This document shows, piece after piece, positions 1,265 to 24,883 of a DNA stretch of 24,883 bases. The notes under the pieces are model-generated. The model saw only the letters and a list, made by a program, of their open reading frames with translations, made no database searches and was not told where the DNA came from. The stretch comes from a virus, in the IMG/VR virus record IMGVR_UViG_3300008050_000019; one strand, written 5' to 3'. Within the stretch, counting starts at the first letter, position 1. Every line of letters starts with the position of its first letter. Made by a program: the position numbers and the translations under genes.

Positions 1265-1846
1265 TTAAAGTTTATAATTCGTACGTTTCTGCCATTCTCT
1301 AAATTCACTTCCCTCTATTGTGCTTGGGATAGTATAAATTCCGTGGATGTTCTCTAGTAATGATTGAGGTAAAATATTTAGTTTCTGTGCGGTCCCCGGT
1401 ATAAAGATAGGCTCTAAATTATCTGGGCCATAAATTCTATCAATAAAAGGGCGAATTGACATCGGTGCACTTTCTCTAATTAACTCGCCCATAGAAAAAC
1501 ATTCATCAACAGATAGTTTTCTATCAGTAGAAACGTACATATGTATATTTCCTGTGGCTGACTTTATCGCAGCATAGCTGCCGCCAGTAATAGGAAATGC
1601 TTCTGATTGCTCCCATAATTTAAAAGCTTTATAATTAGGCGTGTCAATATCAACCCACATTATATTTTTCTTTCCGGCATGTTCTAATAGCTCGCATGCT
1701 GGGACGCCTGTTAAAATGCCTTTTGCTGAACATTCTTGTAGGAATTCGAATTTTTCGTCAAGTGAAGAAAAAGAAATGTTATGTGTTTTTGCTCTTTCTT
1801 TTGAACCATCAGGCAAAAGCTTAGAATATATAAACCCGTATGTCAT
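1265..1846 (-). CDS. Hypothetical protein (193 aa)
   Basis: ORF overlaps the upstream gene's stop by 4 nt (ATGA). No recognisable motif. Confidence 0.5.
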   Translation of the reverse strand: MTYGFIYSKLLPDGSKERAKTHNISFSSLDEKFEFLQECSAKGILTGVPACELLEHAGKKNIMWVDIDTPNYKAFKLWEQSEAFPITGGSYAAIKSATGNIHMYVSTDRKLSVDECFSMGELIRESAPMSIRPFIDRIYGPDNLEPIFIPGTAQKLNILPQSLLENIHGIYTIPSTIEGSEFREWQKRTNYKL

Positions 1847-3633
1847 TTTAATACCTTATCAATCTCTGATGTCCAGCCCTTTCTATCATTTGGCCATGCC
1901 TTCTTTAAATGACGAACAGACGGGATCGCAATCCTGAACTGTTTTGCTTCATCAATGAAATCATCTTCACCTTTCCATTGCTTTCTGTCGCCCATTCTTG
2001 TTGCACTCCAGGGAGTGCTAATGAGGTCTTCGTCACCTGGGTCTACGTTGGATATATAATTGTCATCATCTGGTGGTTGGAAACTATCATCATACTCATC
2101 ATCCTCCACAGGCCGTAATTCCTCAGGAACGTCCTTATATAATTCAGGAAACTCAGCTCGATGCCATGTATGGTCAACATCACTGCTTATTTGTCTTGTT
2201 GCTTCATCCCATCCACCGGTTCCGTGACCTGCTAATTTTTCGAATGCTGCAGATTTCAACTCAAGAGCGTCTGCTGCTGTATCACTCATGCTACCGTAAT
2301 TCATGCCATTTGGGCCGTTGGCGAAGTCTTTTGTAGCATCAGCGAGAATATTCTCTAATTTAGAAATCTCTGCTTTTTTCATCGTAGGGTCAAGCTTAAA
2401 AGCAATTTCTTTTGATTTTTTGAAGCGATCATATAAGGCAGCTTTTGAAGCAGCATATATAAGCTCTCCTGCGATTGTCGACGCAAGTGCTTTAGCACCT
2501 GGGCTTGTTATAGCAACCGAAGCTGGTTTCATTGCTGCCTTTGCTACACCTGCCAATTTTGCTGGATTTGCTGTCGCTGCAGTGCCCATGGCTGCAGCCA
2601 TACTTTTCAAGAAGCTTCTTCTTGTCGTGCCCTTGGCTTCATCAATGAAATCATCTTCACCTTTCCATTGCTTTCTGTCGCCCATTCTTGTCGCACTCCA
2701 GGGTGTGTCTGTGATGTCTTCGTCACCTGGATCTGTGCTGTGATGATTGTCGGTAGCTTTATCAGCTTGTTGATCATTACGCTCAGTTTCTTTTTCAAAA
2801 TCTTCTGGAAATTCTTCTTTGTACCATTCCCGATTTGCGTCATCAGATATTTTTGCCGCCTGATCAGTCCACGCAGGGGTGCCAAAGCCTGATAAATTGT
2901 CGAATAACTCCATATTGGCATCGAAGGCATCCAACACTTCATCACTATGTAATCCCTCAATACCACCTTCAGGAAAACTCTTCATAGTGTCATTTAGAGC
3001 ATTTTCCAGTTTAGCAACCTCTGCTTTTCTCATCTTAGGATCCAATACACCAATGTGCTTTTTCATTTTGGCCCAGCGATTGTACACCTCAGCTTTCGAC
3101 CAAGCATAACCAAGTTCATTTGCTACAAAGAATGAAAGAGCCCTAGCGCCTGGACTTGTTATCGTTGTTGCCGCAGGCGTCATCGCAGTCTTAGCTACAC
3201 CTGCCAATTTTGCTGGATTTGCTGTCGCTGCAGTGCCCATGGCTGCAGCCATGGACTTTAAGAAGCTTCTTCTTGTTGTGCCTTTTGCTTCGGTGATATT
3301 TTGTGTTTTAAACAAATCACTGTATGTTTGGCCCTCAGATAAACCAAATAAATAACGAAGCAATAATTTCGCTTCCACACTTTCAGGAATTATTGCGTGA
3401 CTATAGGGAAAATCAACACCCACTTCAAGTAGCCCATGGGGAGGTAGAAACCTTCTATCATTGATTGATTCTTCAAGTGAATTTTGTGATTTAACTGTCC
3501 AGTGAAGAGGGTGATAAACCAAGACATCGTAAGTGCCCTCTACAATTTTGAAGCCTTTATCTCTAATTCTTTTGTGTGTTTGCTTATCAGCATCTTTACC
3601 TAAAAAGAATGCTATGGGAGAATCATATTGCAT
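1843..3633 (-). CDS. Large internally duplicated protein (596 aa). Each of the two ~220-aa repeat units begins with a twin-arginine (Tat)-like motif TTRRSFLKSMAAAMGTAATANPA and ends with PWSATRMGDRKQWKGEDDFIDEAK.
   Basis: Long ATG-initiated ORF. The two protein repeat units show mosaic nucleotide conservation (see the repeat features). The N-terminal ~135-aa unique domain has no recognisable family. Confidence 0.6.
   Translation of the reverse strand: MQYDSPIAFFLGKDADKQTHKRIRDKGFKIVEGTYDVLVYHPLHWTVKSQNSLEESINDRRFLPPHGLLEVGVDFPYSHAIIPESVEAKLLLRYLFGLSEGQTYSDLFKTQNITEAKGTTRRSFLKSMAAAMGTAATANPAKLAGVAKTAMTPAATTITSPGARALSFFVANELGYAWSKAEVYNRWAKMKKHIGVLDPKMRKAEVAKLENALNDTMKSFPEGGIEGLHSDEVLDAFDANMELFDNLSGFGTPAWTDQAAKISDDANREWYKEEFPEDFEKETERNDQQADKATDNHHSTDPGDEDITDTPWSATRMGDRKQWKGEDDFIDEAKGTTRRSFLKSMAAAMGTAATANPAKLAGVAKAAMKPASVAITSPGAKALASTIAGELIYAASKAALYDRFKKSKEIAFKLDPTMKKAEISKLENILADATKDFANGPNGMNYGSMSDTAADALELKSAAFEKLAGHGTGGWDEATRQISSDVDHTWHRAEFPELYKDVPEELRPVEDDEYDDSFQPPDDDNYISNVDPGDEDLISTPWSATRMGDRKQWKGEDDFIDEAKQFRIAIPSVRHLKKAWPNDRKGWTSEIDKVLK
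1945..2039. repeat. Intragenic direct repeat R1, copy A (~95 nt). Nearly identical to 2636..2730. Encodes PWSATRMGDRKQWKGEDDFIDEAK on the minus strand.
   Basis: Direct nucleotide comparison: gcttcatcaatgaaatcatcttcacctttccattgctttctgtcgcccattcttgt(t/c)gcactccaggg... is shared with only a few substitutions. Confidence 0.8.
2543..2640. repeat. Intragenic direct repeat R2, copy A (~98 nt). Nearly identical to 3194..3290. Encodes the Tat-like segment GTTRRSFLKSMAAAMGTAATANPAKLAGVA.
   Basis: gctacacctgccaattttgctggatttgctgtcgctgcagtgcccatggctgcagccat...gaagcttcttcttgt.gtgcc is shared with about 6 mismatches, synonymous sites included. Confidence 0.8.
2636..2730. repeat. Intragenic direct repeat R1, copy B. 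Abuts R2 copy A.
   Basis: Near-identical to 1945..2039. Confidence 0.8.
3194..3290. repeat. Intragenic direct repeat R2, copy B
   Basis: Near-identical to 2543..2640. Confidence 0.8.
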
Positions 3634-13224: not shown

Positions 13225-13482
13225 CTACCTTTCTTCACGGTATTTTTTGAGCCGCTGACGTACACAAACTGCCATTTCTTTTTCTTTTTCAAGAACTGGA
13301 GCAGCGTCATGAACATAATCACATTTCATACATACCCACGAAAAATCATTCTGGTCCGTAATTAATGCTAGTCCATGGTGAATACCATTCTCAGAAACTT
13401 TGTCATGCCCAAATTTGCAAGGGTGCTTAAGCCACATAACTAAGATCTTAAATGGCTTTAATAAAAATTCTAGTTTAGTCAT
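13225..13482 (-). CDS. Small zinc-ribbon-like protein (85 aa), paralog of 13534..13740
   Basis: Shares W(L/W)x(H/D)PCKFGH...W.C..C.Y.H with the adjacent gene. Confidence 0.5.
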   Translation of the reverse strand: MTKLEFLLKPFKILVMWLKHPCKFGHDKVSENGIHHGLALITDQNDFSWVCMKCDYVHDAAPVLEKEKEMAVCVRQRLKKYREER

Positions 13483-13533: not shown

Positions 13534-13740
13534 TTACAAACCGCTTATGATCATCTTTTTGTGTAAAAAAAGATCAGGTGAATGCAAGTAGTTGCATGTT
13601 TTGCATGCCCATGTATAATTAGCCTTGCTGCGGCTTGGAGTCCAGGGTTCAACATTACCTGACCTATCAAATGCATTATGGCCAAACTTACAAGGGTCAT
13701 CCCACCACTGCTGTAAATAATGAAACAACCTTTTTAGCAT
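13534..13740 (-). CDS. Small zinc-ribbon-like protein (68 aa), paralog of 13225..13482. Start at the ATG overlapping the upstream TAA (TAATG).
   Basis: QQWWDDPCKFGHNAF...WACKTCNYLHSPD. The track ORF begins at an upstream TTG. Confidence 0.45.
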   Translation of the reverse strand: MLKRLFHYLQQWWDDPCKFGHNAFDRSGNVEPWTPSRSKANYTWACKTCNYLHSPDLFLHKKMIISGL

Positions 13741-14579
13741 TAGACTTTTGAAAATAACCAAGGACGTGCATTCCAACCATGGCCAAGGTTATTCCACCCT
13801 CTCTTGTTTAGTCCATCTCTAAATGGCTTACCTACGCGTGTATTCTTGACAATTTTTCCGTCGACATCGGATGTCAGGAAATGGCCGAGTGTAAAGTATC
13901 TATTTTCTGCAGACCAGCAGCTTGCATGCAACAACTTGGCATCGTCTGTGGCATGAGCAAGAACCTTATCAAGCTCAGTAAATACATCACCTACGCCTTT
14001 ATGGCCCACTTTAGCGATATGTTCAACGATTTCGTAGGCTTGAATAACGTCGTATTTACCCTCAGCAGAAGGAACATGTTTCAGGTTAGTTAATCCTGAT
14101 AGATTTTTAAAATATTTAAAAATTTCAACTAGCTCCGCATTGATTTCGCAGTAGTGTACTTCGGCATTAGGGAAGTTTTTAGCCAAAATTATTGAAGAAA
14201 ACCCGGGGCCTGCACCCCAGTCGAAGATTCTCTTAGGATCATTAAACCCATTATCTCTTAACAGCTTAATCCCCCCACATGTAGTTGCGTGAGTCTGGCA
14301 TGTTGAAACCCCCAAAGAATCCCACTTGTAATTCGGGTGTGAATACAGCCACGCAGGATCACGTGTAGTTTTCCATTGCTCAAATAAAGCTTCTGCTGAG
14401 GGCTGCATATACTGCCGAAGTGTACTAAGATCGTCTGGATTCTTAAGTCGCCAATGTTTGGCGAACTCAGCTTCTGACATACCAAGTTTTGTTTTAGCAT
14501 ATTCACTAATTGCACCTTGCAAACCCGCATTGTTATTAACACCGAGTGATTTACATAAGCCGATCGTCTTTATTTTCAT
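13740..14579 (-). CDS. Class I SAM-dependent methyltransferase (not a DPPY/NPPF-type DNA amino-methyltransferase)
   Basis: Motif I IFDWGAGPGFSS followed by the acidic motif II (HYCEIN). Confidence 0.6.
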   Translation of the reverse strand: MKIKTIGLCKSLGVNNNAGLQGAISEYAKTKLGMSEAEFAKHWRLKNPDDLSTLRQYMQPSAEALFEQWKTTRDPAWLYSHPNYKWDSLGVSTCQTHATTCGGIKLLRDNGFNDPKRIFDWGAGPGFSSIILAKNFPNAEVHYCEINAELVEIFKYFKNLSGLTNLKHVPSAEGKYDVIQAYEIVEHIAKVGHKGVGDVFTELDKVLAHATDDAKLLHASCWSAENRYFTLGHFLTSDVDGKIVKNTRVGKPFRDGLNKRGWNNLGHGWNARPWLFSKV

Positions 14580-15623: not shown

Positions 15624-17246
15624 TTATCTCATTTTGTCTTTTACTTTTTTGAGTACTGTGGCCCTGTCTTGCCTGTACTTCTCCTTGTTTTTTAATGTTT
15701 TGCTAGCTCTTAATTCAAGCTGTGATCGTGGAAATTCTGTTGTCCACCGTTTTAGGATGTCATCTGGAGTATCTCTTTTGCCAGCCAGCGTCATTTGAAT
15801 CATGGAGTCTTTACTAGCGTCTGCTTTATCAGCTAAAACACGTATAACATCAGGTGTTAAACTTAGATTATATACTACGCTCATTCTCACTTCCCTAGAA
15901 TGATCACCTGCTAAAGCGAGAAGTATAGATTCAGATGCTAAATTATTTGCTGCTACTTTTCTTCTAACAAGCTCTGATGAATCACTTGCTAAAGTGTTAA
16001 GTATCTCTAAAGAGACTTTCTGATTACTTGCAGTCGTGGCTCTAACTATTTCATCTTCAGCCGTCGAAAGGCTTTCCAGCACGTCAATAGGCGTGTTGAT
16101 ATTTATTGCGAGATGATCTTTTACATAAGTGTTATCAGATGATAACGCACGAAGAGTAGATTGCCCCGTCCGATGATTAAGCGCGACCATGGCTCGGACG
16201 TCGTCCGAATCATCATTTTTAAGCATATCGAGTACCTCAGGAGAAGCATTCCAGCTATCTGCTACGGCCCGTCTAACTTCTTCGTCTGTAGAACTAGCAG
16301 CTTTAACAAGACGCTCATGTGAAGATACTTTAACGTAATCGGTGACTTCTGGCGAAAACTTATACTCTTTCTTGCCCTCTAATGTATCAAGCAGATCAAA
16401 AAATGCATCATATCGAAGCCCGCTGGTAAACTTTTTGAACCTTGGAACAGACGTAATCGCTTTCTTAACGTCTCTTAAAGCAGGATGCTCATGATTCTTT
16501 TTTGTATGATTTTTAATCGCAGTACTAATCTCATCCCAATCGTCACCAAAAGCATCATAAAATTTAAACTTCTTATTGTTATGATCAACTGTTGTTTCAT
16601 TCGGCGCGGATGGTTGAATAACTCCGCCCTTAACGCCAATTGACCACTTCTTCTTCGTATTGTGTTTATCAATTACATAGAAAAGAATTGTATTGTTTAA
16701 AATGTAACTATAAAATAGATTCTCGCCCTTTGTTCTTGCAGTACACCAAACCGTACCACGTCCAATAGAGCATGATGCGTCAACACTTCTTGGCATAAAT
16801 ACAACAAAGTCCTCGGATTCATAAATGTTATCCGCGTCCTTGGCTGCAGCATCATGATCTATCTTAGAGTCTCCAGGAAGCTCTTCAAGCTTCCGGTGGA
16901 GATCGCCAGGTGTCTTATAATTGTTAATATCAGCGTCTTTACCTTTAAGTTTCTGCTTGTTTTTAGCCTTATCAAATGAAATAATGAGAGGTGAAATGTC
17001 TCTGAGAGGTTCATTATTTGAACGTGAAACACGTTCAAGCCACATAAGATATTGCTTTAATTTAGCTTGAGGAAGAACTTGAAGTTTTCCGAAGACTTCA
17101 TCCCATTCTTCTGGAGCCCTGTTAGACTTTTCTTTGATATCATCAATGGTACCCTCACTAAGAAGCTTAATTGCATATTCTAAAAGTTTGTTTTCGCTAG
17201 AGGCACCAGAGATCATCTCTCTAAGTTCAGAAATTTTGACAAGCAT
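15624..17246 (-). CDS. Leucine-rich-repeat-variant (LRV)/HEAT-like repeat protein (540 aa). Its N-terminal ~85-aa domain is duplicated at 24361..24690.
   Basis: C-terminal ~23-aa repeats of the form D...VR..VA.N......L..LA.D. N-terminus MLVKISELRE...EEWDEVFGKLQVLPQAKLKQYLMWLERVSRSNNEPLRD is ~70% identical to the upstream fragment. Confidence 0.6.
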   Translation of the reverse strand: MLVKISELREMISGASSENKLLEYAIKLLSEGTIDDIKEKSNRAPEEWDEVFGKLQVLPQAKLKQYLMWLERVSRSNNEPLRDISPLIISFDKAKNKQKLKGKDADINNYKTPGDLHRKLEELPGDSKIDHDAAAKDADNIYESEDFVVFMPRSVDASCSIGRGTVWCTARTKGENLFYSYILNNTILFYVIDKHNTKKKWSIGVKGGVIQPSAPNETTVDHNNKKFKFYDAFGDDWDEISTAIKNHTKKNHEHPALRDVKKAITSVPRFKKFTSGLRYDAFFDLLDTLEGKKEYKFSPEVTDYVKVSSHERLVKAASSTDEEVRRAVADSWNASPEVLDMLKNDDSDDVRAMVALNHRTGQSTLRALSSDNTYVKDHLAININTPIDVLESLSTAEDEIVRATTASNQKVSLEILNTLASDSSELVRRKVAANNLASESILLALAGDHSREVRMSVVYNLSLTPDVIRVLADKADASKDSMIQMTLAGKRDTPDDILKRWTTEFPRSQLELRASKTLKNKEKYRQDRATVLKKVKDKMR

Positions 17247-17273: not shown

Positions 17274-18329
17274 TTATGACAGTTCTGTCATTGACTTAAT
17301 TTTCCAAATTGTCGTAGCAAAACCAAAATCACTTTTATCAATTTCACCCATGTATGCCGTATTAAGCTCTGGCATCGGATGCTTATCAGGATGCCATCCC
17401 CAGCAATAACATCTGTGTTTTTTGCCAGTTGGTCCCATGATATTAAGCAACAAATAAGGCTTCTTCGTCTTTGTTACTTTTTTAATAGCTTCATCTAAAA
17501 TAAACCAGTGCAGCCCTTTCTTCTTATAGTCATCGATAGTAGGAACGCCGATTTTATCTAACCTTGTTCTGACTTTATCTGAAATTATTAGACTGAGATC
17601 GGTTGACCCAACAAGCTCCTTCAGTTGTCTAATCCATGTAGGCTTATCCCACTCAACAACACCTTGAGACTCTTGTAGGCGACGTTCAAAAACATCACGC
17701 CCTTTCTTTACAGATTTAAGCTTGTGAAGCTGTAAATCAGAATCTTCATAGTCATTGCCCGTCAACACATCAAACATCTGATGATAGTTAGAAAATGTCT
17801 TTCCTTCGCCCACAATACCTGTCGAGTCAAATGCACCTATCTGGATCAGATGTTGCATGGCGCGTTTGTTAAATTTTGAATGTTTCCAGCTTCCGTCTTC
17901 ATTCCATAACAAATCATGAACAGAGTTATAGGGCCTGTTTTCTATAATTTCGTCAACAGCCGCTTCACCCACTGCCTTCACAGTCAAAAATGACGGCATG
18001 AACTTTTTGCCAGGCATTATAGTCCATTTTTTTGTTGCGTGGTTAATATCGACCTTCGTTATTTCATAGCCGAATGCACGTAGTTCACCAATTGCCTTCG
18101 ATCGCTTATCAGGATGGCTAGATTGAGTCTCCATATATGCACATAGCCACTCTGATTCAAAGTGCGTAAGAAGCCAGGCGCACATATACGAATCGATTGC
18201 GTAAGATACAGCATGTGAATTAGACGTTAACAATCCATTGGCAAGATAGAATTGATGATCTGGGTGGTCAACTTCAAGATCATATGCTTGATGTTTTCCG
18301 ATGGATTTAAATGATTTAATTTTAGGCAT
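17274..18329 (-). CDS. dnaE: DnaE-type (Pol III alpha) polymerase C-terminal fragment, preceded by a split-intein C-half (intein-C, 37 aa)
   Basis: N-term MPKIKSFKSIGKHQAYDLEVDHPDHQFYLANGLLTSN matches the Ssp DnaE-c [36 protein letters not shown] (blocks F/G; terminal Asn; +1 Ser). The following SHAVSYAIDSYMCAWL..GYEITKVDIN...VKAVGEAAVDEIIENR...IQIGAFD matches DnaE KSHAAAYALVSYQTAWLK...ILPPDIN...AIKGVGEGPIEAI...SGAFD. Confidence 0.8.
   Translation of the reverse strand: MPKIKSFKSIGKHQAYDLEVDHPDHQFYLANGLLTSNSHAVSYAIDSYMCAWLLTHFESEWLCAYMETQSSHPDKRSKAIGELRAFGYEITKVDINHATKKWTIMPGKKFMPSFLTVKAVGEAAVDEIIENRPYNSVHDLLWNEDGSWKHSKFNKRAMQHLIQIGAFDSTGIVGEGKTFSNYHQMFDVLTGNDYEDSDLQLHKLKSVKKGRDVFERRLQESQGVVEWDKPTWIRQLKELVGSTDLSLIISDKVRTRLDKIGVPTIDDYKKKGLHWFILDEAIKKVTKTKKPYLLLNIMGPTGKKHRCYCWGWHPDKHPMPELNTAYMGEIDKSDFGFATTIWKIKSMTELS
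18219..18329 (-). mobile_element. Split intein, C-terminal half (intein-C) of the DnaE intein
   Basis: See the parent CDS: block F DLEVDHPDHQFYLANG, terminal ..TSN, +1 Ser. Confidence 0.75.
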
Positions 18330-18720: not shown

Positions 18721-19032
18721 TTATGAATCATACGTTTTATCAAATGCTGCCCAACGATCAGTCATAATAAGATAGATGCGGTATCGCTCTACTGTGTACT
18801 GCTGATTTTTTAAATAGTACATCACAGAAATCTCTGATTGGCCATCATAATATACTGCTGCGGGACCATCTTCCCTATGCAAGTTATCATACACGTAATA
18901 GAACTCTGATATTTTGTCACCGTTTCTTTCGAAAAACGTAGTTGCAGGGCCATCTACCCTATGCAAATCGTCTTGCTCATAATGCTTTAAACTGTATAAT
19001 GAGCCATCATACCAGTATTTTCTAATAATCAT
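18721..19032 (-). CDS. MORN-like repeat protein (HRxDGPA repeats), family member 1
   Basis: Repeats LHRVDGPATTFFERNG / LHREDGPAAVYYDGQ. C-terminal YRIYLIMTD...KTY motif shared with the family. Confidence 0.6.
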   Translation of the reverse strand: MIIRKYWYDGSLYSLKHYEQDDLHRVDGPATTFFERNGDKISEFYYVYDNLHREDGPAAVYYDGQSEISVMYYLKNQQYTVERYRIYLIMTDRWAAFDKTYDS

Positions 19033-19369
19033 AGGTTGACTCCAAACCTTTCATATTATCCATTACAAGGCAATAGATCCTGAAGTCAGATTCTGGCATC
19101 TCAACGTCCTGGATGCTATACCGCTTCTTAATTGGGCCACAAAGATCATACTCTATCATAGCTGGGCCATCTTCTCTGTGCAGTTGACCCTTTATATAAA
19201 AAGCAACAACCTCTATCTTACCGCCGAAATCATAGGTAACGTAGGCAGGTCCAGATAACCTATGATAAGTGCCGTCCTGGATCCATGCACATATTGAGGG
19301 TCGGTGATTATAATGTTTTACTATGTGAAGCTCGCTCATAAGTTCACCACTCTTAAAATAATGTATCAT
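19022..19369 (-). CDS. MORN-like repeat protein, family member 2
   Basis: YHRLSGPAYVTYDFGGK / LHREDGPAMIEYD. C-terminal DFRIYCLVMDNMKGLESTYDY. Confidence 0.6.
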   Translation of the reverse strand: MIHYFKSGELMSELHIVKHYNHRPSICAWIQDGTYHRLSGPAYVTYDFGGKIEVVAFYIKGQLHREDGPAMIEYDLCGPIKKRYSIQDVEMPESDFRIYCLVMDNMKGLESTYDY

Positions 19370-19551: not shown

Positions 19552-19857
19552 CTAGCGCTCTAACCAAGATTTTGCATAGGAGAGATACTCAGCATCTTTC
19601 TTGATTCTTTTCTCTGTTATATAAATGCTATACGCAGAAGCAAGTGATATGTTCTTCCACATTTTAAATGTGGTACCTGTGTGTGTATTTGTATAGCTTT
19701 TACGTGACCATAAATTGTAGAATGGTGATGTACAAAAAAACCCTGCTTCTTTGATTTTGCGGATGGCATGGTACTTTTTTATTAAGTATGATGTTGTGAT
19801 GATAGCGGTACCTACACATACTACCACCACACAAGAAGCTATTATTGGATCAATCAT
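19552..19857 (-). CDS. Membrane protein (101 aa, N-terminal TM segment)
   Basis: MIDPIIASCVVVVCVGTAIITTSYLI hydrophobic N-terminus. Confidence 0.5.
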   Translation of the reverse strand: MIDPIIASCVVVVCVGTAIITTSYLIKKYHAIRKIKEAGFFCTSPFYNLWSRKSYTNTHTGTTFKMWKNISLASAYSIYITEKRIKKDAEYLSYAKSWLER

Positions 19858-19963
19858 TATTCTCTCTTACTCTTTTTTCCCACTCTTCTACCGGGTTAGG
19901 GATAACTGCTGCGAATATAAACGCCCCAATCAGTAAAAGTGTTATTAATGTAAATCTAAACAT
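19850..19963 (-). CDS. Small single-pass membrane peptide (37 aa), not in the ORF track: MFRFTLITLLLIGAFIFAAVIPNPVEEWEKRVRENND
   Basis: ATG at 19963. Its TGA stop overlaps the ATG of 19552..19857 (ATGATTGA). It fills the gap between flanking genes. Confidence 0.35.
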   Translation of the reverse strand: MFRFTLITLLLIGAFIFAAVIPNPVEEWEKRVRENND

Positions 19964-20225
19964 ATGAATCCTCTAACCCTTTAAAATTTCCAACCATGAG
20001 ACAATGTAAGCGAAACTCATATGGCGACAAAGCATGCCCGCGGTAATAGTAACCAATGTCTCCAAGTGCTCCATTAAAATGAAATATTTTAACTGCCGGT
20101 CCATCTTCTCTGTGTATGATACCATCTATCATATAAGTATGAGAATACACAGGGCCAAAGTCCCTGTTCACAGGTGTGGTATTCCAATAATTGATAGTTA
20201 ACGTCTTCACAAATGTGTTATCCAT
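19956..20225 (-). CDS. MORN-like repeat protein, family member 3. Start at ATG 20225 (the track ORF begins at an upstream GTG).
   Basis: MDNTFVKTLTINYWN N-terminus parallels MLNTFTRTLTINYWH of member 4. IHREDGPAVKIFHFNG. C-terminal EFRLHCLMVGNFKGLEDSY. GGGTGG RBS 7 nt upstream. Confidence 0.6.
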   Translation of the reverse strand: MDNTFVKTLTINYWNTTPVNRDFGPVYSHTYMIDGIIHREDGPAVKIFHFNGALGDIGYYYRGHALSPYEFRLHCLMVGNFKGLEDSYV

Positions 20226-20285
20226 ATGTACCACCCATTATAAATTATAATACTATTAATTTCATTTTATCACATATTAGTAAAT

Positions 20286-20639
20286 TCATGTATATGTTTC
20301 ATATAAACCTTCTTCCCATGAATTTACTAAGCATAAAATTCTATAGGTTTTTTTTGATATTCTATGGCCGTTGATATAATATACCTTACTTGCAGGTAAC
20401 ACATTACCGCTAAGATCAAAAGTAAGTGAAGCGGGGCCACATTCGTTATGAAGGCCGCCGTGCCTATAAAATTTTTCTTGATGAACAGCCCCGGTAGTAT
20501 AATAACTGACTTGGGCAGGACCTGTAGTACGATGTATGATTGCATCAAGCCAATACTCTTTGGTGCAAACTTTGTTAAAGTTTCTGGAGTGGGGATGCCA
20601 GTAATTTATTGTTAATGTGCGTGTAAATGTGTTTAGCAT
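20286..20639 (-). CDS. MORN-like repeat protein, family member 4
   Basis: IHRTTGPAQVSYYTTG / HNECGPASLTFDLSGN. C-terminal YRILCLVNSWEEGLYETY. Confidence 0.6.
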   Translation of the reverse strand: MLNTFTRTLTINYWHPHSRNFNKVCTKEYWLDAIIHRTTGPAQVSYYTTGAVHQEKFYRHGGLHNECGPASLTFDLSGNVLPASKVYYINGHRISKKTYRILCLVNSWEEGLYETYT

Positions 20640-20851
20640 GGCACATCACAAATAAGAATATCGGAATTAATCGTACTCGAAGAAACAATGTACTTATCAA
20701 TTTTATTTTGTGTAACACTCCAAACTACAACATCTCCAAGTGAATGTGGGTCCCTGAGATCATTGTTGGATAAGAAGCTCAGAGGAATGTAGTATTCTTT
20801 GAGGAACGTTTCGTAAATAAGCTGGCCAATTTTAAATTCTGATACTAACAT
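20633..20851 (-). CDS. Small paralog family protein 1 of 6 (MLxSEFKIGQLIYD...YYIPL N-terminus)
   Basis: MLVSEFKIGQLIYETFLKEYYIPLSF. Confidence 0.55.
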   Translation of the reverse strand: MLVSEFKIGQLIYETFLKEYYIPLSFLSNNDLRDPHSLGDVVVWSVTQNKIDKYIVSSSTINSDILICDVPC

Positions 20852-20872
20852 AATGCCTCACAAATGATAACA

Positions 20873-21061
20873 TCATTCCTTACAGATAGATTGTTGATTT
20901 CGTATATCAGTTGCCTGAGCGTTTACGACCCAAACTGTCACAGTGTATGACTCTATGAAGTGGGTCATAAGCAGTGATGGCTTAAAAGTCAGAGGAATGT
21001 AGTAGGAATCATCGGGTTTGTCATAAATAAGCTGTCCAACTTTAAGTTCTGATGTTAACAT
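20873..21061 (-). CDS. Small paralog family protein 2 of 6
   Basis: MLTSELKVGQLIYDKPDDSYYIPLTF. Confidence 0.55.
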   Translation of the reverse strand: MLTSELKVGQLIYDKPDDSYYIPLTFKPSLLMTHFIESYTVTVWVVNAQATDIRNQQSICKE

Positions 21062-21267
21062 AATGTCTCACAAACTACATAATCTCTTTCAACAACGTGG
21101 TCCGCTATATTATAGTGTTCAGTGCGGAACCTTGTGATATTAAATACCACCACCTCAAAAACAGGTCCGTGGGGCAGGCTGATTGGTTTGATCTCCACTG
21201 GAACGTAATAAAACTTGCCGATTGAATCATAAATGAGCTGCCCGATCTTGAATTCTGATGCTAGCAT
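21055..21267 (-). CDS. Small paralog family protein 3 of 6 (start at the ATG; the track begins at an upstream TTG)
   Basis: MLASEFKIGQLIYDSIGKFYYVPVEI. Confidence 0.55.
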   Translation of the reverse strand: MLASEFKIGQLIYDSIGKFYYVPVEIKPISLPHGPVFEVVVFNITRFRTEHYNIADHVVERDYVVCETLC

Positions 21268-21482
21268 GTTGCACCGCAAATCACTTGATCATCTTCGACA
21301 GCAACTGGCGTTATATAATAACTTTCAATACTAAGATTTGTAACATTTAATACTGTCGCGCTAAAAGATTCTATGTAGTGTGTAACACACTCAGCCCTGT
21401 CGCCAATAAATAACGGAATATAATAGCATTCATTATACCCGTCATAAATAAGCTGCCCGATCTTGAATTCTGCTACTAGCAT
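21261..21482 (-). CDS. Small paralog family protein 4 of 6
   Basis: MLVAEFKIGQLIYDGYNECYYIPLFI. Confidence 0.55.
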   Translation of the reverse strand: MLVAEFKIGQLIYDGYNECYYIPLFIGDRAECVTHYIESFSATVLNVTNLSIESYYITPVAVEDDQVICGATC

Positions 21483-21709
21483 TAGGATGCCACTCTTAGT
21501 TCTGCTATGACAGTGTCATGTTTTAGCGTTACGTTAGTCATCGTGTAGGTTTGTGCGCCATTTTCCAAAGTTTTTATGGGACTCCGAAATACCCATACAC
21601 TCGCAACAAAAAAGCCCATATCATCGTAATAAGTCTCCAGCGGAATGTAGAAACATTTAAGAGCCCTATCGTAGATAAGCTGTCCAATGTTAAGTTCAGA
21701 TGTTAACAT
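21482..21709 (-). CDS. Small paralog family protein 5 of 6
   Basis: MLTSELNIGQLIYDRALKCFYIPLET. Shares the C-terminal DTVIAEL with member 6. Confidence 0.55.
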   Translation of the reverse strand: MLTSELNIGQLIYDRALKCFYIPLETYYDDMGFFVASVWVFRSPIKTLENGAQTYTMTNVTLKHDTVIAELRVAS

Positions 21710-21921
21710 TATATTACTACTAACTCCGCTATGACAGTGTCATTTCTTAATGATAGGTTAGTTATATTAAATATTACCGCCCTATTATCTGCAATTCTCC
21801 ATGCTGTTACAACATAGGCTGTCTCAGAGGAGTTAGTAGTATCAACTGATATAGGAATATAACAAAACTTGTGGACGCGATCATAGATAAGCTGATGGAC
21901 TTTGAATTCAGATAGCAGCAT
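21709..21921 (-). CDS. Small paralog family protein 6 of 6 (start at the ATG; the track begins at an upstream TTG)
   Basis: MLLSEFKVHQLIYDRVHKFCYIPISV...NDTVIAELVVI. Confidence 0.55.
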   Translation of the reverse strand: MLLSEFKVHQLIYDRVHKFCYIPISVDTTNSSETAYVVTAWRIADNRAVIFNITNLSLRNDTVIAELVVI

Positions 21922-21995
21922 ATTATTAAATGGCCTATTCAATTATAGGACATCTAATTTCATTTTAGCACGCTGTATAAAAATAATATAACTTA

Positions 21996-22235
21996 TCATT
22001 TTTTTCGTGTCCAATATCTATACGCACCAGGAAACGTAAGTATCATTCCAGCTACACTTAGTATAATCGATGCTATAATCAGTGCAATGAATAGCTCAGC
22101 TGTCATCGAGGGGCTCATTACTGATGTTCCGGCTACGCAGAACCCGCTTACATAAAAACCTGATGATGTCTGTGGTCGCTGCCACGATAGCCACACATAT
22201 CCATGCGAACGTAACAAGCATAGAAAGTGCGACAA
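21996..22235 (-). CDS. Small membrane protein. The track start is TTG at 22235. An alternative ATG at 22118 gives a 40-aa peptide MSPSMTAELFIALIIASIILSVAGMILTF...
   Basis: Hydrophobic TM segment. The start is ambiguous because the first in-frame ATG is at codon 40. Confidence 0.35.
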   Translation of the reverse strand: MSHFLCLLRSHGYVWLSWQRPQTSSGFYVSGFCVAGTSVMSPSMTAELFIALIIASIILSVAGMILTFPGAYRYWTRKK

Positions 22236-22252
22236 ATATTGCTAAAATCCCT

Positions 22253-22498
22253 TTAAGCATGGTTAACCTCGGTTTGCTCTATGTGATCAATAACATCATT
22301 AACGTGAACAAATTTTTTATCAAACTTTTCATGTGAATAATATTCCCCGTGATGCATATTAGCTGGATTCCACGCCCATCCGGCACGCTTAATCTTACGC
22401 TTTTTCATTTGAAGTGAATAGGCTGGCAAATTGCCTATGACGGTGACAACTCCTGTAATAGCAGCTATTGCACTTAATATTATACCTAATTCAACCAT
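22253..22498 (-). CDS. Small membrane protein (81 aa, N-terminal TM segment)
   Basis: MVELGIILSAIAAITGVVTVIGNLPAY. ATG start overlaps the upstream gene's end. Confidence 0.5.
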   Translation of the reverse strand: MVELGIILSAIAAITGVVTVIGNLPAYSLQMKKRKIKRAGWAWNPANMHHGEYYSHEKFDKKFVHVNDVIDHIEQTEVNHA

Positions 22499-23513
22499 TA
22501 TACATTTTCCCTATCCTTGTAACCCCAGGTTGTGGGTTTTTTAAACTTTCAAAGAGCTGTTCAAGACATTCTTTTTTAAATTCTTTTTTATTCCACTGAT
22601 CATACGAAATTCTAATTAACGTCCAGTTATGTTTCTCTATATGTTCATCGAGTAATTTATCCTTAAGCTGGATTTCGTCTAAATCTTGCGACTCAAATTT
22701 CTTTTGAAAATGTAAATCTCCATCAAATTCAAGATACACTCGAAGCTTGATATCACCGATGTCAACTTGTCTAAATTTAGACTTTGTAGGGAAAGTAACA
22801 CTTTTGACTCGCTGGCTGCGCTTAAAGCTATAACCCTCAATGCTGCTTACAATTTCGAATAAAGCAGTTTCTGGACGCGAAGTCCACCCGTTTATATATT
22901 TAACAACACACTTTTCATAAAACTCTTCCCAATTTTCTTCCCGCCACTTACGAAGCTGTTCTGTTCTTCTCTTTAAAATTTCTGGACGAGCAGATGTAAT
23001 CTTTGCTGTTTCCGATGATTTTTTTCTAAACTTCTCTGTTTTATTTAATGTGCCAAGAAGATCACTTCTACGCTGGCGTTCTTTATCATTTGACATAATA
23101 GAAGCAGAGACAGCTTTGCCCATTTTTTGTTTGTATTCTGACAAATCTGTACCAGCGTCATTTGCGCGCTGAATCCAGTCGCCATTCTTTTTATTTTGCT
23201 TGCTATAAGCATCAAATGAGCTGCTACATTTAACTGGCCCATGCTTTTCTATATACTCTGGTGCTGTCAAACCATGCTCCACCCTAATGTGGCGTGTTAG
23301 ACTCTTACATCTCCAACCGCATAATGCGCACATGACATATCCGACATTTAAAACAAGCTCTGAGTAGCATTCTACTTCATGAGCTTCTACAAGATCTGGA
23401 GTTCTTCCCCCCTTCCCACATTTCCCGCAACGATTTCTAGGTCGTTTTCTATTATTTTGTGCATTGGAAGCATTCTCCCGTCCATTACCCTGAATTTGTG
23501 ATCCATCGTGCAT
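22491..23513 (-). CDS. Candidate free-standing homing endonuclease: N-terminal Cys/His zinc-binding region plus C-terminal DUF559/Vsr-like (PD-(D/E)xK) nuclease domain
   Basis: CGKCGK...HEVEC...CALCGWRC zinc-finger-like N-terminus. C-terminal VDIGDIKLRVYLEFDGDLHFQ...DKLLDEHIEKHNWTLIRISYDQW resembles the DUF559/Vsr core (D...E.DG..H...D...L...GW.VIR). Its start overlaps the last 127 nt of the intein-N ORF. Confidence 0.5.
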   Translation of the reverse strand: MHDGSQIQGNGRENASNAQNNRKRPRNRCGKCGKGGRTPDLVEAHEVECYSELVLNVGYVMCALCGWRCKSLTRHIRVEHGLTAPEYIEKHGPVKCSSSFDAYSKQNKKNGDWIQRANDAGTDLSEYKQKMGKAVSASIMSNDKERQRRSDLLGTLNKTEKFRKKSSETAKITSARPEILKRRTEQLRKWREENWEEFYEKCVVKYINGWTSRPETALFEIVSSIEGYSFKRSQRVKSVTFPTKSKFRQVDIGDIKLRVYLEFDGDLHFQKKFESQDLDEIQLKDKLLDEHIEKHNWTLIRISYDQWNKKEFKKECLEQLFESLKNPQPGVTRIGKMYNG

Positions 23514-24349
23514 CTTACCTTTTGCCCTTCCTCTAGCTCGAACTCATATAGCTCGAGCATGCCGTGATCATGTCTTTGTAGTACTTCCACAAAGATGTCA
23601 CTCTTATTTCGCTCATCACGCGATTTAATATAGTCACCCGGCTTAATATCGCCGACGGTCGTCGTTTTAATGAGTTCTCCCTCATTTGTATATGTATTTA
23701 TACACTCAGAATGTAACAGAGTTTTATTAAAGCCGTACCCAGAAAATGCTGCAACTCTATCGAACAGACTCTCTGCGTCTGCTTTGCGAATTCCTCTTTC
23801 AACTGCGCCCTCGATAAATTGCTTTTCAAGTTTCTTAGCTTCTTCTTTCGCCTTTGACTTTCCAGACATTGACCTTTTTGTGATAACTTTTCTTAGCTTA
23901 TCACAATCGTCAAGATTCAGTCCACCTACAACATGACCAAGCTTCATTAGCTGTTCTTGGAAGATTACGTGACCGAATGTTTCTTCAAGAACCTCTTTAA
24001 CTAAAGGGTGCTCATACTCAACAGACGCTGGATCATTCTTTGCAGTAATGTATGTCTTATCAACCTTTCCTGTCAATGGGCCCGGGCGATAAATCGATGT
24101 TGCCGTTGCAATCTCAACGATATTCTTCGGTTCTAGATTAGAGAAAAACATCTGGGCGCCTTTGGCTGTGCATTGAAAAACACCACCCCAGTTACCTTCT
24201 TTGTAGATTTTATCGTAAACTGTTTTGTCTTGAAGATCTAAAACGTCAGGATGAAGATTGCTTTCGTACCAATTTTTAATGTCATTAAAAGCTGGATCAT
24301 TGATGGGCTCAGCTTTTTTGAGTATAGTTTTCTTTCTTAATTTAACCAC
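23387..24349 (-). CDS. dnaE: DnaE-type (Pol III alpha) polymerase internal fragment (fingers region) fused to a split-intein N-half. The fragment begins at GTG immediately after an in-frame TAA.
   Basis: GGVFQ...IYRPGPL...FGHVIFQEQLMKLG...FSGYGFNK matches DnaE AVFQLES...LFRPGPL...YGIILYQEQVMQIA...FAGYGFNKSH. After ...TLLHSE the sequence CINTYTNEGELIKTTTVGDIKPGDYI...RCTMDHKFRVMDGRML matches the Ssp DnaE-n intein blocks A/B, then a stop. Confidence 0.8.
   Translation of the reverse strand: MVKLRKKTILKKAEPINDPAFNDIKNWYESNLHPDVLDLQDKTVYDKIYKEGNWGGVFQCTAKGAQMFFSNLEPKNIVEIATATSIYRPGPLTGKVDKTYITAKNDPASVEYEHPLVKEVLEETFGHVIFQEQLMKLGHVVGGLNLDDCDKLRKVITKRSMSGKSKAKEEAKKLEKQFIEGAVERGIRKADAESLFDRVAAFSGYGFNKTLLHSECINTYTNEGELIKTTTVGDIKPGDYIKSRDERNKSDIFVEVLQRHDHGMLELYEFELEEGQKVRCTMDHKFRVMDGRMLPMHKIIENDLEIVAGNVGRGEELQIL
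23390..23704 (-). mobile_element. Split intein, N-terminal half (intein-N, 105 aa) of the DnaE intein
   Basis: Begins with Cys (CINTYT). Block B TMDHKF. Length and sequence parallel cyanobacterial DnaE-n split inteins. Terminates with a stop codon rather than continuing into an endonuclease domain. Confidence 0.75.
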
Positions 24350-24360
24350 ATTTTATTTTA

Positions 24361-24690
24361 TCACATTTCGTGGCCGAATTGAATATAAAGTGAAAACAAA
24401 TATAAAATCTCTAAAGGTCTCTTGCGCTCATTCAATACATAATCTCTTAAGGGTTCTTGATTTGAACGTGAAACACGTTCAAGCCACGTAAGATACTGCT
24501 TTAGCTTAGCCTGAGGGAGAACTTGAAGTTTCTCAAAAACTTCATCCCACTCTTCAGGGTGCCTATTAGATTTTGCTTTGACATCATCAATAACAGTCTC
24601 TTGTAAAAGATGGCCAATTAAGCTTCTTAAGTTACTTTCTACAATACAATTTGAAATAGCTTCTCTAAGGAACTTAACTTTAACCAGCAT
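24361..24690 (-). CDS. Truncated paralog of the N-terminal domain of the LRV-repeat protein 15624..17246 (109 aa; possible gene remnant or stand-alone domain protein)
   Basis: MLVKVKFLRE...DDVKAKSNRHPEEWDEVFEKLQVLPQAKLKQYLTWLERVSRSNQEPLRD. About 85% nt identity to 17020..17125 over the core, then it diverges and stops. Confidence 0.45.
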   Translation of the reverse strand: MLVKVKFLREAISNCIVESNLRSLIGHLLQETVIDDVKAKSNRHPEEWDEVFEKLQVLPQAKLKQYLTWLERVSRSNQEPLRDYVLNERKRPLEILYLFSLYIQFGHEM

Positions 24691-24735
24691 TGTCAATAAC
24701 TATTTTCATAGAAAGTTTCTTTCATCTCAGGTTTT

Positions 24736-24883
24736 TCATTTTTCATAAGTTGATTTTAAGCCTTTCATGTTTCCAATCAACAAACAATGAAGTCTAAATT
24801 CTTCTTTGGAAAGTTCTTTGTCATGAATCGAGAACTCCCTGTATTTAACATCCCCATTTTCACAGAAAGTTTCATAAGCTGGA
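24736..24883 (-). CDS. MORN-like family protein, C-terminal part (5'-truncated by the window edge)
   Basis: The minus-strand frame reads ...EEFRLHCLLIGNMKGLKSTYEK*, matching the family C-terminal motif ([DE]FR[IL].CL....KGLE..Y). Confidence 0.5.
   Translation of the reverse strand, partial: PAYETFCENGDVKYREFSIHDKELSKEEFRLHCLLIGNMKGLKSTYEK

Follow-up and report, generated by a model that had tools for sequence, protein, structure and literature searches.

The IMG/VR virus record IMGVR_UViG_3300008050_000019 holds a stretch of viral DNA of 24,883 nucleotides, referred to here as the window, whose coding capacity lies almost wholly on the minus strand. Between positions 20633 and 21921, numbered as throughout on the whole stretch, six minus-strand open reading frames (ORFs) of 62-75 amino acids follow one another, five of them intact, and these are numbered m1 to m6 in the order of transcription. 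The array is real, and the family that it forms is new at the level of sequence. An initial inspection of the letters without database searches, below called the sequence-only reading, had proposed six consecutive, translationally coupled paralogs at this position. The ORF coordinates agree with this, all 15 of the 15 member pairs match in BLASTP (E values from 3e-6 to 5e-14), and a profile of the six members finds exactly six matches in the window.

Anatomy of the six-gene array

The members fall into two subgroups. The first is made up of m1 (21709-21921; 70 aa) and m2 (21482-21709; 75 aa), which end in DTVIAELVVI and DTVIAELRVAS, respectively. The second comprises m3 (21261-21482; 73 aa), m4 (21055-21267; 70 aa), m6 (20633-20851; 72 aa) and, when read in its alternative frame, m5, for which the annotated ORF (20873-21061; 62 aa) is truncated by a frameshift and the gene with its restored end spans 20845-21061. 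Members of the second subgroup end in D-x-(V/I)-(I/V)-C-x3-C followed directly by the stop codon, and carry a histidine in a loop at about residues 33-36 (His35 in m3) that is not present in m1 or m2. The co-varying Cys and His residues of m3-m6 could constitute a candidate metal site. The sequence-only reading had assigned a shared C-terminal DTVIAEL to its members 5 and 6 only; as the array lies on the minus strand, these are the first two genes to be transcribed, m1 and m2. The motif is indeed theirs, but a related one is found in m3, m4, m6 and the corrected m5, and D-x-(V/I)-(I/V)-(A/C) is common to all six members.

Overlapping stop and start codons join the members at four of the five internal junctions. 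The overlap is a single nucleotide (TAATG) at m1/m2 and m2/m3, and 7 nt (xxATGyTAr) at m3/m4 and m4/m5, as well as between the stop codon of m6 and the ATG of the next gene. With the 7-nt overlap, one frame has to end in a C-terminal Cys-stop while the other has to read Met-Leu. The translational coupling proposed earlier is thus consistent with every internal junction other than m5/m6, where the frameshift has broken the overlap and left a gap of 21 nt. The annotated frame of m5 stops early, after ...NQQSICKE, while the +1 frame reads IYEINNLSVRNDVIICEALC up to a stop codon. Removal of one nucleotide in the region 20845-20925 restores an m5 of 71 aa ending in IYEINNLSVRNDVIICEALC, whose stop codon (20845-20847) overlaps the ATG of m6 in the manner of the other junctions. 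This 1-nt frameshift is found in every contig that covers the position (L001, L002, L003 and L008).

The start of m1 is the ATG at 21921. A TTG further upstream, at 21942, overlaps the -10 hexamer of a promoter-like element, TAAAATGAAATTA-N7-TATAAT (21942-21967, minus strand), which lies in the 74-nt spacer upstream of m1 and whose hexamer ends 20 nt before the ATG. A second copy (20244-20269, minus strand) occupies the 60-nt spacer upstream of the second gene of a MORN-like family that follows the array. This exact motif of 19 specified bases occurs twice in the window against 0.08 occurrences expected, and a count of two was not reached in any of 100 shuffles. Both copies lie between genes, on the coding strand, and are confined to the island of genes that contains the array; relatives and the adjacent 10 kb lack the motif. 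We suggest that the TAAAATGAAATTA 13-mer is positioned as the activator box of a middle promoter would be. Because there are two such elements, and no minus-strand terminator-like site was found within the array, two transcription units are likely: the first would consist of m1-m6 together with the first MORN-like gene, and the second would start at the second MORN-like gene.

Divergence, selection and predicted fold

Conservation among the members is strongest at the N-terminus, with a mean pairwise identity of 62% over alignment columns 1-24 and of 24% over the remainder. The invariant positions are M1, L2, E5, Q10, L11, I12 and Y13, followed by Y21 and P23; the N-terminus of 14 residues that had been described as invariant is therefore strongly conserved, but invariant at only seven of its 14 positions. 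The accompanying claim that the remainder diverges almost completely did not survive alignment. From residue 25 to the end the bodies still align with one another, the local alignment scores standing well above those of shuffled sequences (z of 10.3 for m1-m2, 9.7 for m3-m4, 11.4 for m4-m6, 6.1 for m3-m6 and 5.7 for m3-m5). Because the bodies are homologous and the C-terminal motif is common to all six, the members are full-length single-domain paralogs rather than a conserved handle fused to unrelated bodies.

The codons used at conserved residues show how this conservation has arisen. Synonymous choices differ between members (CTG, TTA or CTA at L2; TCT or TCA at S4; GGA, GGG or GGC at G9; CCT, CCG or CCA at P23), so that in any pair 13-63% of the identical N-terminal residues are encoded by different codons (median about 47%), and nucleotide identity between units over codons 1-24 is 60-75%. 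Nei-Gojobori proportions of synonymous (pS) and nonsynonymous (pN) differences are 0.72 and 0.22 for codons 1-24, and 0.70 and 0.58 for the body, where the m5 values are slightly affected by a mis-framed restoration of that gene. Synonymous sites are saturated (pS about 0.7), and the duplications must thus be old; a recent tandem amplification of the accordion type, with near-identical DNA, is ruled out by this saturation and by the 60-75% identity within the conserved module. The low pN relative to pS in the N-terminal module (ratio about 0.3) and its varied synonymous codons show purifying selection at the protein level; the codon pattern contradicts the idea that gene conversion or a DNA-level repeat underlies the N-terminal conservation.

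Two alternatives can be weighed against these figures. In the first, the units would be repeats acting at the level of DNA or RNA, in regulation or recombination, and the ORFs would be incidental. The 5' ends are the most similar DNA of the units, as such a role would require, but an identity of only 60-75%, different codons for the same residue at about half of the conserved positions in the median pair, no match in Rfam, and long open frames kept in all units on one strand leave this reading with hardly any probability. In the second, the array would be an old local amplification that is now eroding in a permissive site, its duplicates having little or no present function. Five of the six frames have remained intact despite saturated synonymous sites, the N-terminal module has a pN/pS of about 0.3, and the C-terminal motif, the overlapping stop and start codons and a dedicated promoter-like element have all been preserved. 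We consider decay unlikely on these grounds, while recognizing that the frameshift of m5, a pN that approaches pS in the body, the confinement of the family to one phage population in our searches and an island situated in a gap where insertions are harmless would all be expected from it.

AlphaFold2 (AF2) models were made for m1 and m3 from an alignment with a depth of six, the members themselves, and have pLDDT values of 64.6 and 59.1. The two independent models have the same four-strand topology (strands at residues 12-14, 19-28, 35-42 and 47-54 in m1, and at 12-14, 19-26, 40-46 and 51-57 in m3) and a C-terminal tail of low confidence. Each member of about 70 aa probably folds as a small SH3-like beta-barrel; this is a moderately supported assignment to a class in which some 60-70 residues form a strongly bent antiparallel barrel with five strands, the models having four strands at moderate confidence. 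Foldseek searches of the BFVD viral models gave only weak matches (best E 0.012, TM about 0.6), to many uncharacterized small phage proteins. The invariant QLIY lies in beta1 of the modelled barrel and Y-(I/V)-P in beta2, with the hypervariable residues 15-19 at the tip of the hairpin between them. The models thus give moderate support to a conserved N-terminal segment of 24 residues that forms the beta1-beta2 hairpin and core of a single barrel, and to variable parts that correspond to the hairpin tip, the beta2-beta3 loop and the later strands. The image of a conserved handle with a variable body, offered by the sequence-only reading, is at odds with both models as well as with the homology of the bodies. 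In EF-P domain I, beta1 and beta2 have a signature that the N-terminal pattern hydrophobic-K-x-G-x-x-I-x-x-D...Y-x-(I/V) resembles. With pI values of 4.05-6.0 the array proteins are acidic; none has a hydrophobic leader, and they are predicted to be soluble.

The models bear on two further proposals. Bacteriophage T4 has internal proteins encoded by tandem small genes with a conserved N-terminus and a differing remainder, which have an anti-restriction role (PMC3012670). By analogy, the N-terminus of the array members would be a capsid-targeting or protease-recognition leader, cleaved after Glu5, and the bodies would be packaged, injected and used to block host nucleases. The resemblance, in tandem arrangement, small size and a conserved N-terminus with an invariant Glu5, is superficial. 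A T4-type internal protein has a short shared leader on otherwise unrelated proteins, whereas here the conserved 24 residues form beta1-beta2 inside the predicted domain, leaving no detachable leader, and the bodies are mutually homologous, unlike those of IPI, IPII and IPIII. In addition, the array lies among replication genes with no head or protease genes in view. The T4 protease motif has Leu or Ile three positions before the Glu; the corresponding residue before Glu5 is Leu, Thr, Val or Ala, and not consistently Leu or Ile. Packaged cargo is accordingly a doubtful explanation, and the least probable of those that assign the array proteins a role.

The other proposal is that the six paralogs are made in a fixed ratio and build one hetero-oligomeric assembly, similar to the Sm/LSm or Hfq rings, in which the conserved N-terminal hairpin and the C-terminal tail join neighbouring chains and the variable surfaces point outward. 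The small-barrel fold class does include ring-forming barrels, conservation is concentrated at both ends of the chain, and the tail is conserved yet unstructured in the monomer models, as it would be if it paired as a strand with another chain. The stop/start overlaps at four of five internal junctions would also suit a fixed ratio, but gene overlaps are general throughout the window and the coupling is not special to the array. With m5 frameshifted in all covering contigs and no match to an Sm or Hfq fold, we regard such an assembly as improbable.

Distribution of the array and the interrupted DnaE gene

Homologs of the array were sought widely. Nucleotide searches of GenBank phages in near and distant modes gave no match, nor did tblastn of m1 and m3 against the same phages at E<=1. 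No member has a significant match in PHROGs, Pfam, NCBIfam or PADLOC. A relationship to the Pfam PAAR family was indicated for one member only, at an E value of 0.067 that is below threshold, and was discarded as noise; apart from it there is no Pfam match at E<=1, the KOW and EF-P families included. A profile search of PDB sequences returned nothing at E<=10. A word-indexed search of 5.8 billion proteins recovered only the six members and one-residue variants of them, and an exhaustive hmmsearch of 1.84 billion representatives added only five long repetitive proteins, rejected as spurious since their scores are summed from six to nine weak stretches. There is no further homolog in IMG/VR or among GTDB genomes, JGI metagenome contigs yielded only L009, which is the same as L006 (see below), and the profile of six members finds nothing in about 1 Mb of other fetched loci. 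Neither this profile nor that of the MORN-like family has a match in the 10 kb past the left edge of the window, and the variant P0005 has no record as a called gene. That no homolog is recognizable, as had been noted by eye, therefore holds across all of these collections. The suggested link to effector, immunity or known anti-defence families found no counterpart in PADLOC, Pfam or NCBIfam; a polymorphic toxin or immunity array, which would combine a conserved trafficking region at the N-terminus with a toxin domain at the C-terminus and an immunity gene alongside, was rejected as well, each member being a single 70-aa domain without a toxin, immunity or defence match in these databases.

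Bar two mismatches to L001, the window matches the terminal ~24.9 kb of a contig of 308,593 bp (ERZ27249009 k141_306648) from an uncultured phage, and contigs of at least seven further assemblies carry the array with an identity of 99.9-100%. Copy number, for which the sequence-only reading had advised a check of related phages, shows no variation within this population: eight contigs, 99.9-100% identical, were compared. Three SNP positions occur across the compared contigs; one of them, at 21799 (G to T on the coding strand), changes Trp41 of m1 to Cys (W41C) in samples L005 and L007 (P0004).

Two contigs, L004 (ERZ27249147; 1-1383) and L006 (JGI 3300006924; 1-1069), carry m2, m3, m4 and the start of m5 with 100% DNA identity to the window, preceded by genes of 105 aa and 70 aa that are unrelated to the jumbo phage. 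This flank shares 85% identity with loci of a small marine phage that is very abundant and microdiverse and encodes ERF, DnaB and DUF932; 429 protein hits were obtained for it, on contigs no longer than 28 kb and with Tara Oceans assemblies among the sources. One sequence gives way to the other at the stop codon that ends the 70-aa gene, between ...GATGAG and GTAATATAATG..., with 6-11 nt of microhomology; the junction lies at about 638-648 of L004, equivalent to about 21717 of the window, and has the sequence GATGAGGTAATATAATGTTAAC. It is common to both contigs, which differ at one of 1069 positions, and in each partner it falls on a gene boundary. We think it more probable that the contigs represent a natural recombinant than a random chimera. 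Were it natural, the array might be a mobile cassette of diversified small binders, each neutralizing a different host defence or competitor, that moves between unrelated marine phages. We give this only a small probability; if true, it would mean that a phage of 308 kb and a small phage of at least ~30 kb have recently exchanged DNA and therefore share a host.

The array lies between the two parts of a DnaE gene. The upstream border is an ORF at 23387-24349 (minus strand) that encodes a DnaE fragment with the finger domain (phrog_405 614-794; PF17657) and the N-fragment of a split intein, 111 aa long (~23390-23722), which follows the conserved GYGFNK. The downstream border, at 17274-18329 (minus strand), encodes the C-fragment of the intein, 37 aa (18219-18329; MPKIKSF...NGLLTSN), after which DnaE resumes with SHAVSYA and continues into its C-terminal part (phrog_405 793-944; PF14579). 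The joined intein pieces give a match to the structure of the Npu DnaE intein (4kl5) that extends over the two fragments (E=8e-18). A homing-endonuclease-like gene of 340 aa at 22491-23513 (minus strand; gene callers place its start at ~23333) has a ROS/MucR-type zinc finger and a RAP/Vsr-like region; it matches HNH and intron-encoded-nuclease PHROGs and the ROS_MUCR and RAP Pfam families, and its product is a predicted nuclease. Two same-strand DnaE ORFs, the first ending in an intein N-fragment and the second beginning with a C-fragment that terminates in Asn followed by Ser, flank a homing endonuclease gene that stands free between them and so make up a fractured gene. The term is used for split-intein genes with a free-standing homing endonuclease; the examples described include DnaE as the host gene and endonucleases of the Vsr-like type (Dassa et al. 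2009, PMC2677866).

The first residue of the intein is apparently Thr (~23720-23722), GYGFNK being followed by TLLHSECINT. For class 1 inteins, only Cys1 or Ser1 is listed as the nucleophile of the first step (PMC4031507), and the Thr is neither of these. Either this would be a natural Thr1 intein, or splicing would start at the Cys six residues later and leave an insert of 6 aa. The closest relative in IMG/VR, L015, which is 41% identical, has Ser at this position (GFNK followed by SLQANET). L015 encodes a 942-aa N-terminal part of DnaE with its intein fragment, a 328-aa homolog of the endonuclease in the same position, an ORF of 83 aa, and the intein C-fragment with the C-terminal part of DnaE. 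Its DnaE gap is ~1.1 kb and holds no array, whereas that of the window is ~5 kb with ~15 genes. These are the endonuclease gene, three or four small membrane-protein ORFs, the six-member family, a four-member MORN-like family and a few singletons, the two expanded families accounting for 10 of the ~15. The array is thus part of an accessory island that has accreted, with amplification of two families, where DnaE was already interrupted.

The MORN-like genes, all on the minus strand, lie at 20286-20639, where the first is translationally coupled to m6, 19956-20234, downstream of the second promoter-like element, 19022-19369 and 18721-19032. Their products have a repeated HR-x-DGPA motif that is reminiscent of MORN-variant repeats, although the Pfam comparison does not place them among MORN repeats (PF07661; MORN_2 at E=0.82). 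A homology search with the member coupled to m6 found only that member itself, and nothing outside the phage. Small ORFs with a hydrophobic, transmembrane-like start are found in the island at 19552-19857, 19850-19963, 21996-22260 and 22253-22498 (for example MIDPIIASCVVVVCVGTAIITTSYLI and MVELGIILSAIAAITGVVTVIGNLPAY), and have no family matches.

Several observations concern the surroundings of the island. The first part of DnaE, in the region 23387-24883, holds the finger domain only, matching phrog_405 from 614, and the contig ends at ~24885. The PHP/palm part of about 600 aa, which in L015 is contiguous within the 942-aa ORF, is not found upstream of it. Since this part is not upstream and the contig ends there, either the polymerase would be broken at least once more or the genome would be permuted at the contig end. 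An ORF of 111 aa just upstream of the first DnaE part (24361-24696) is a duplicate, with 70% identity, of the first 83 residues of a 540-aa HEAT/LRV-repeat ORF just downstream of the second part (15624-17246); the duplicated DNA comprises 149 bp with 84% identity. Further along the window, an adjacent pair of small paralogs of 85 and 80 aa lies at 13225-13482 and 13534-13776 (31% identity, E=2e-9). The segment 3926-12449 is a cluster for nucleotide and sugar metabolism, with a dCMP deaminase, a DHH phosphoesterase, a thymidylate-synthase homolog, a thymidylate-kinase-like gene, two nucleotide-sugar epimerase paralogs and a glycosyltransferase-like ORF, and a methyltransferase-like ORF follows further on (13740-14579). 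The cluster might serve the modification of DNA or of surface sugars. An ORF of 596 aa at 1843-3633 has a weak TAT-signal-like match at residues 115-138 and contains an internal DNA repeat, visible as ORFs in an alternative frame at 1905-2036 and 2607-2966 with 83% identity over 30 aa. Rfam and tRNA scans made no finds.

Interpretation and comparison with known systems

Gene anatomy, paralogy, the pattern of selection, the island context and the absence of the array from the nearest relative are all matters of observation. The explanation that we put first, tentatively and at somewhat less than an even chance, is that the array encodes a lineage-specific, co-transcribed set of small, acidic, SH3-like modules that bind other molecules and act in an accessory capacity, in host takeover or anti-defence. 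The six ORFs would be old tandem duplicates of a single gene, read together with the first MORN-like gene into a single transcript that starts at a promoter-like element of their own, and coupled in translation by the stop/start overlaps. DnaE would first have been broken by the free-standing homing endonuclease and rescued by the split intein; because of this rescue the gap tolerates insertions, and the island would then have grown in it. During infection a battery of related small modules would be made, with a shared scaffold and different surfaces, each of which might engage a different host or competitor macromolecule, whether protein or nucleic acid. When the array proteins are expressed, that they bind, and what they target are all inferred.

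The sequence-only reading had likewise thought of an accessory or host-takeover array of a virulent phage. That the members are small acidic ORFans with their own promoter-like element, in an island of small genes beside a homing endonuclease and absent in L015, agrees with it, but only as regards the setting, the function itself being an inference. Structure prediction for m1 and m3 assigned them to no virion structural family and the locus varies between relatives; the structural genes without variability that had been named as speaking against such a role are thus not what was found.

Several points weigh against binding modules as we describe them. Neither experiment nor homology links the array to a function, and the promoter-like element is a sequence pattern only. 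The structure models are of moderate confidence (pLDDT 65 and 59, depth six), with the conserved C-terminal tail below a pLDDT of 50, and the SH3-like barrel is so common a fold that it gives little indication of the target. The frameshift in one member means that the phage does not need every copy, and with saturated pS a body pN/pS of about 0.8 does not distinguish diversifying selection from relaxed constraint. Small ORFans in phage accessory islands have been the source of most of the anti-defence and host-takeover functions found. Screens of either kind could reasonably draw candidates from this family, which is expanded six-fold and selectively maintained and combines a conserved scaffold with variable loops. 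The hybrid contigs form one separate lead and the apparent Thr1 split intein another.

The array is of a familiar kind, small ORFan paralogs with a common fold in a phage accessory island, and it is the setting that is more unusual. T4 IPI, IPII and IPIII are also encoded by tandem small genes with a conserved N-terminus, but here the conserved part is integral to the fold and the bodies are homologous. In contrast to the SH3-like barrels of EF-P/eIF5A domain I, KOW, Tudor and the RNA-polymerase-interacting domains of CarD and UvrD, to which there is no membership at the level of sequence, the members are free-standing acidic proteins of 70 aa in six tandem copies and not parts of larger factors. 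Gene accordions of the poxvirus type arise by tandem amplification and consist of recent, near-identical copies; the amplification is alike, whereas the copies of the array are old and individually maintained (pS about 0.7). The hyperplastic regions of T4-like phages and host-takeover modules such as gp37-gp60 of SPO1 are clusters of small, fast-evolving ORFans with their own promoters that vary between relatives. The island resembles these as a set of small ORFans among replication genes, but their genes are mostly unrelated, while here two families have been amplified in place. With the fractured genes of Dassa et al. the locus shares a split-intein DnaE and a Vsr-like endonuclease between the halves. 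The described loci, like the gap of L015, hold essentially the endonuclease gene alone, whereas the gap of the window, ~5 kb with ~15 genes, contains two expanded families, two promoter-like elements and, at its border, an apparent Thr1 intein. This extends the picture of the fractured gene: the gap left by a fractured split-intein gene can serve as a landing pad in which accessory genes are gathered and amplified, from ~1.1 kb in a relative to ~5 kb here.

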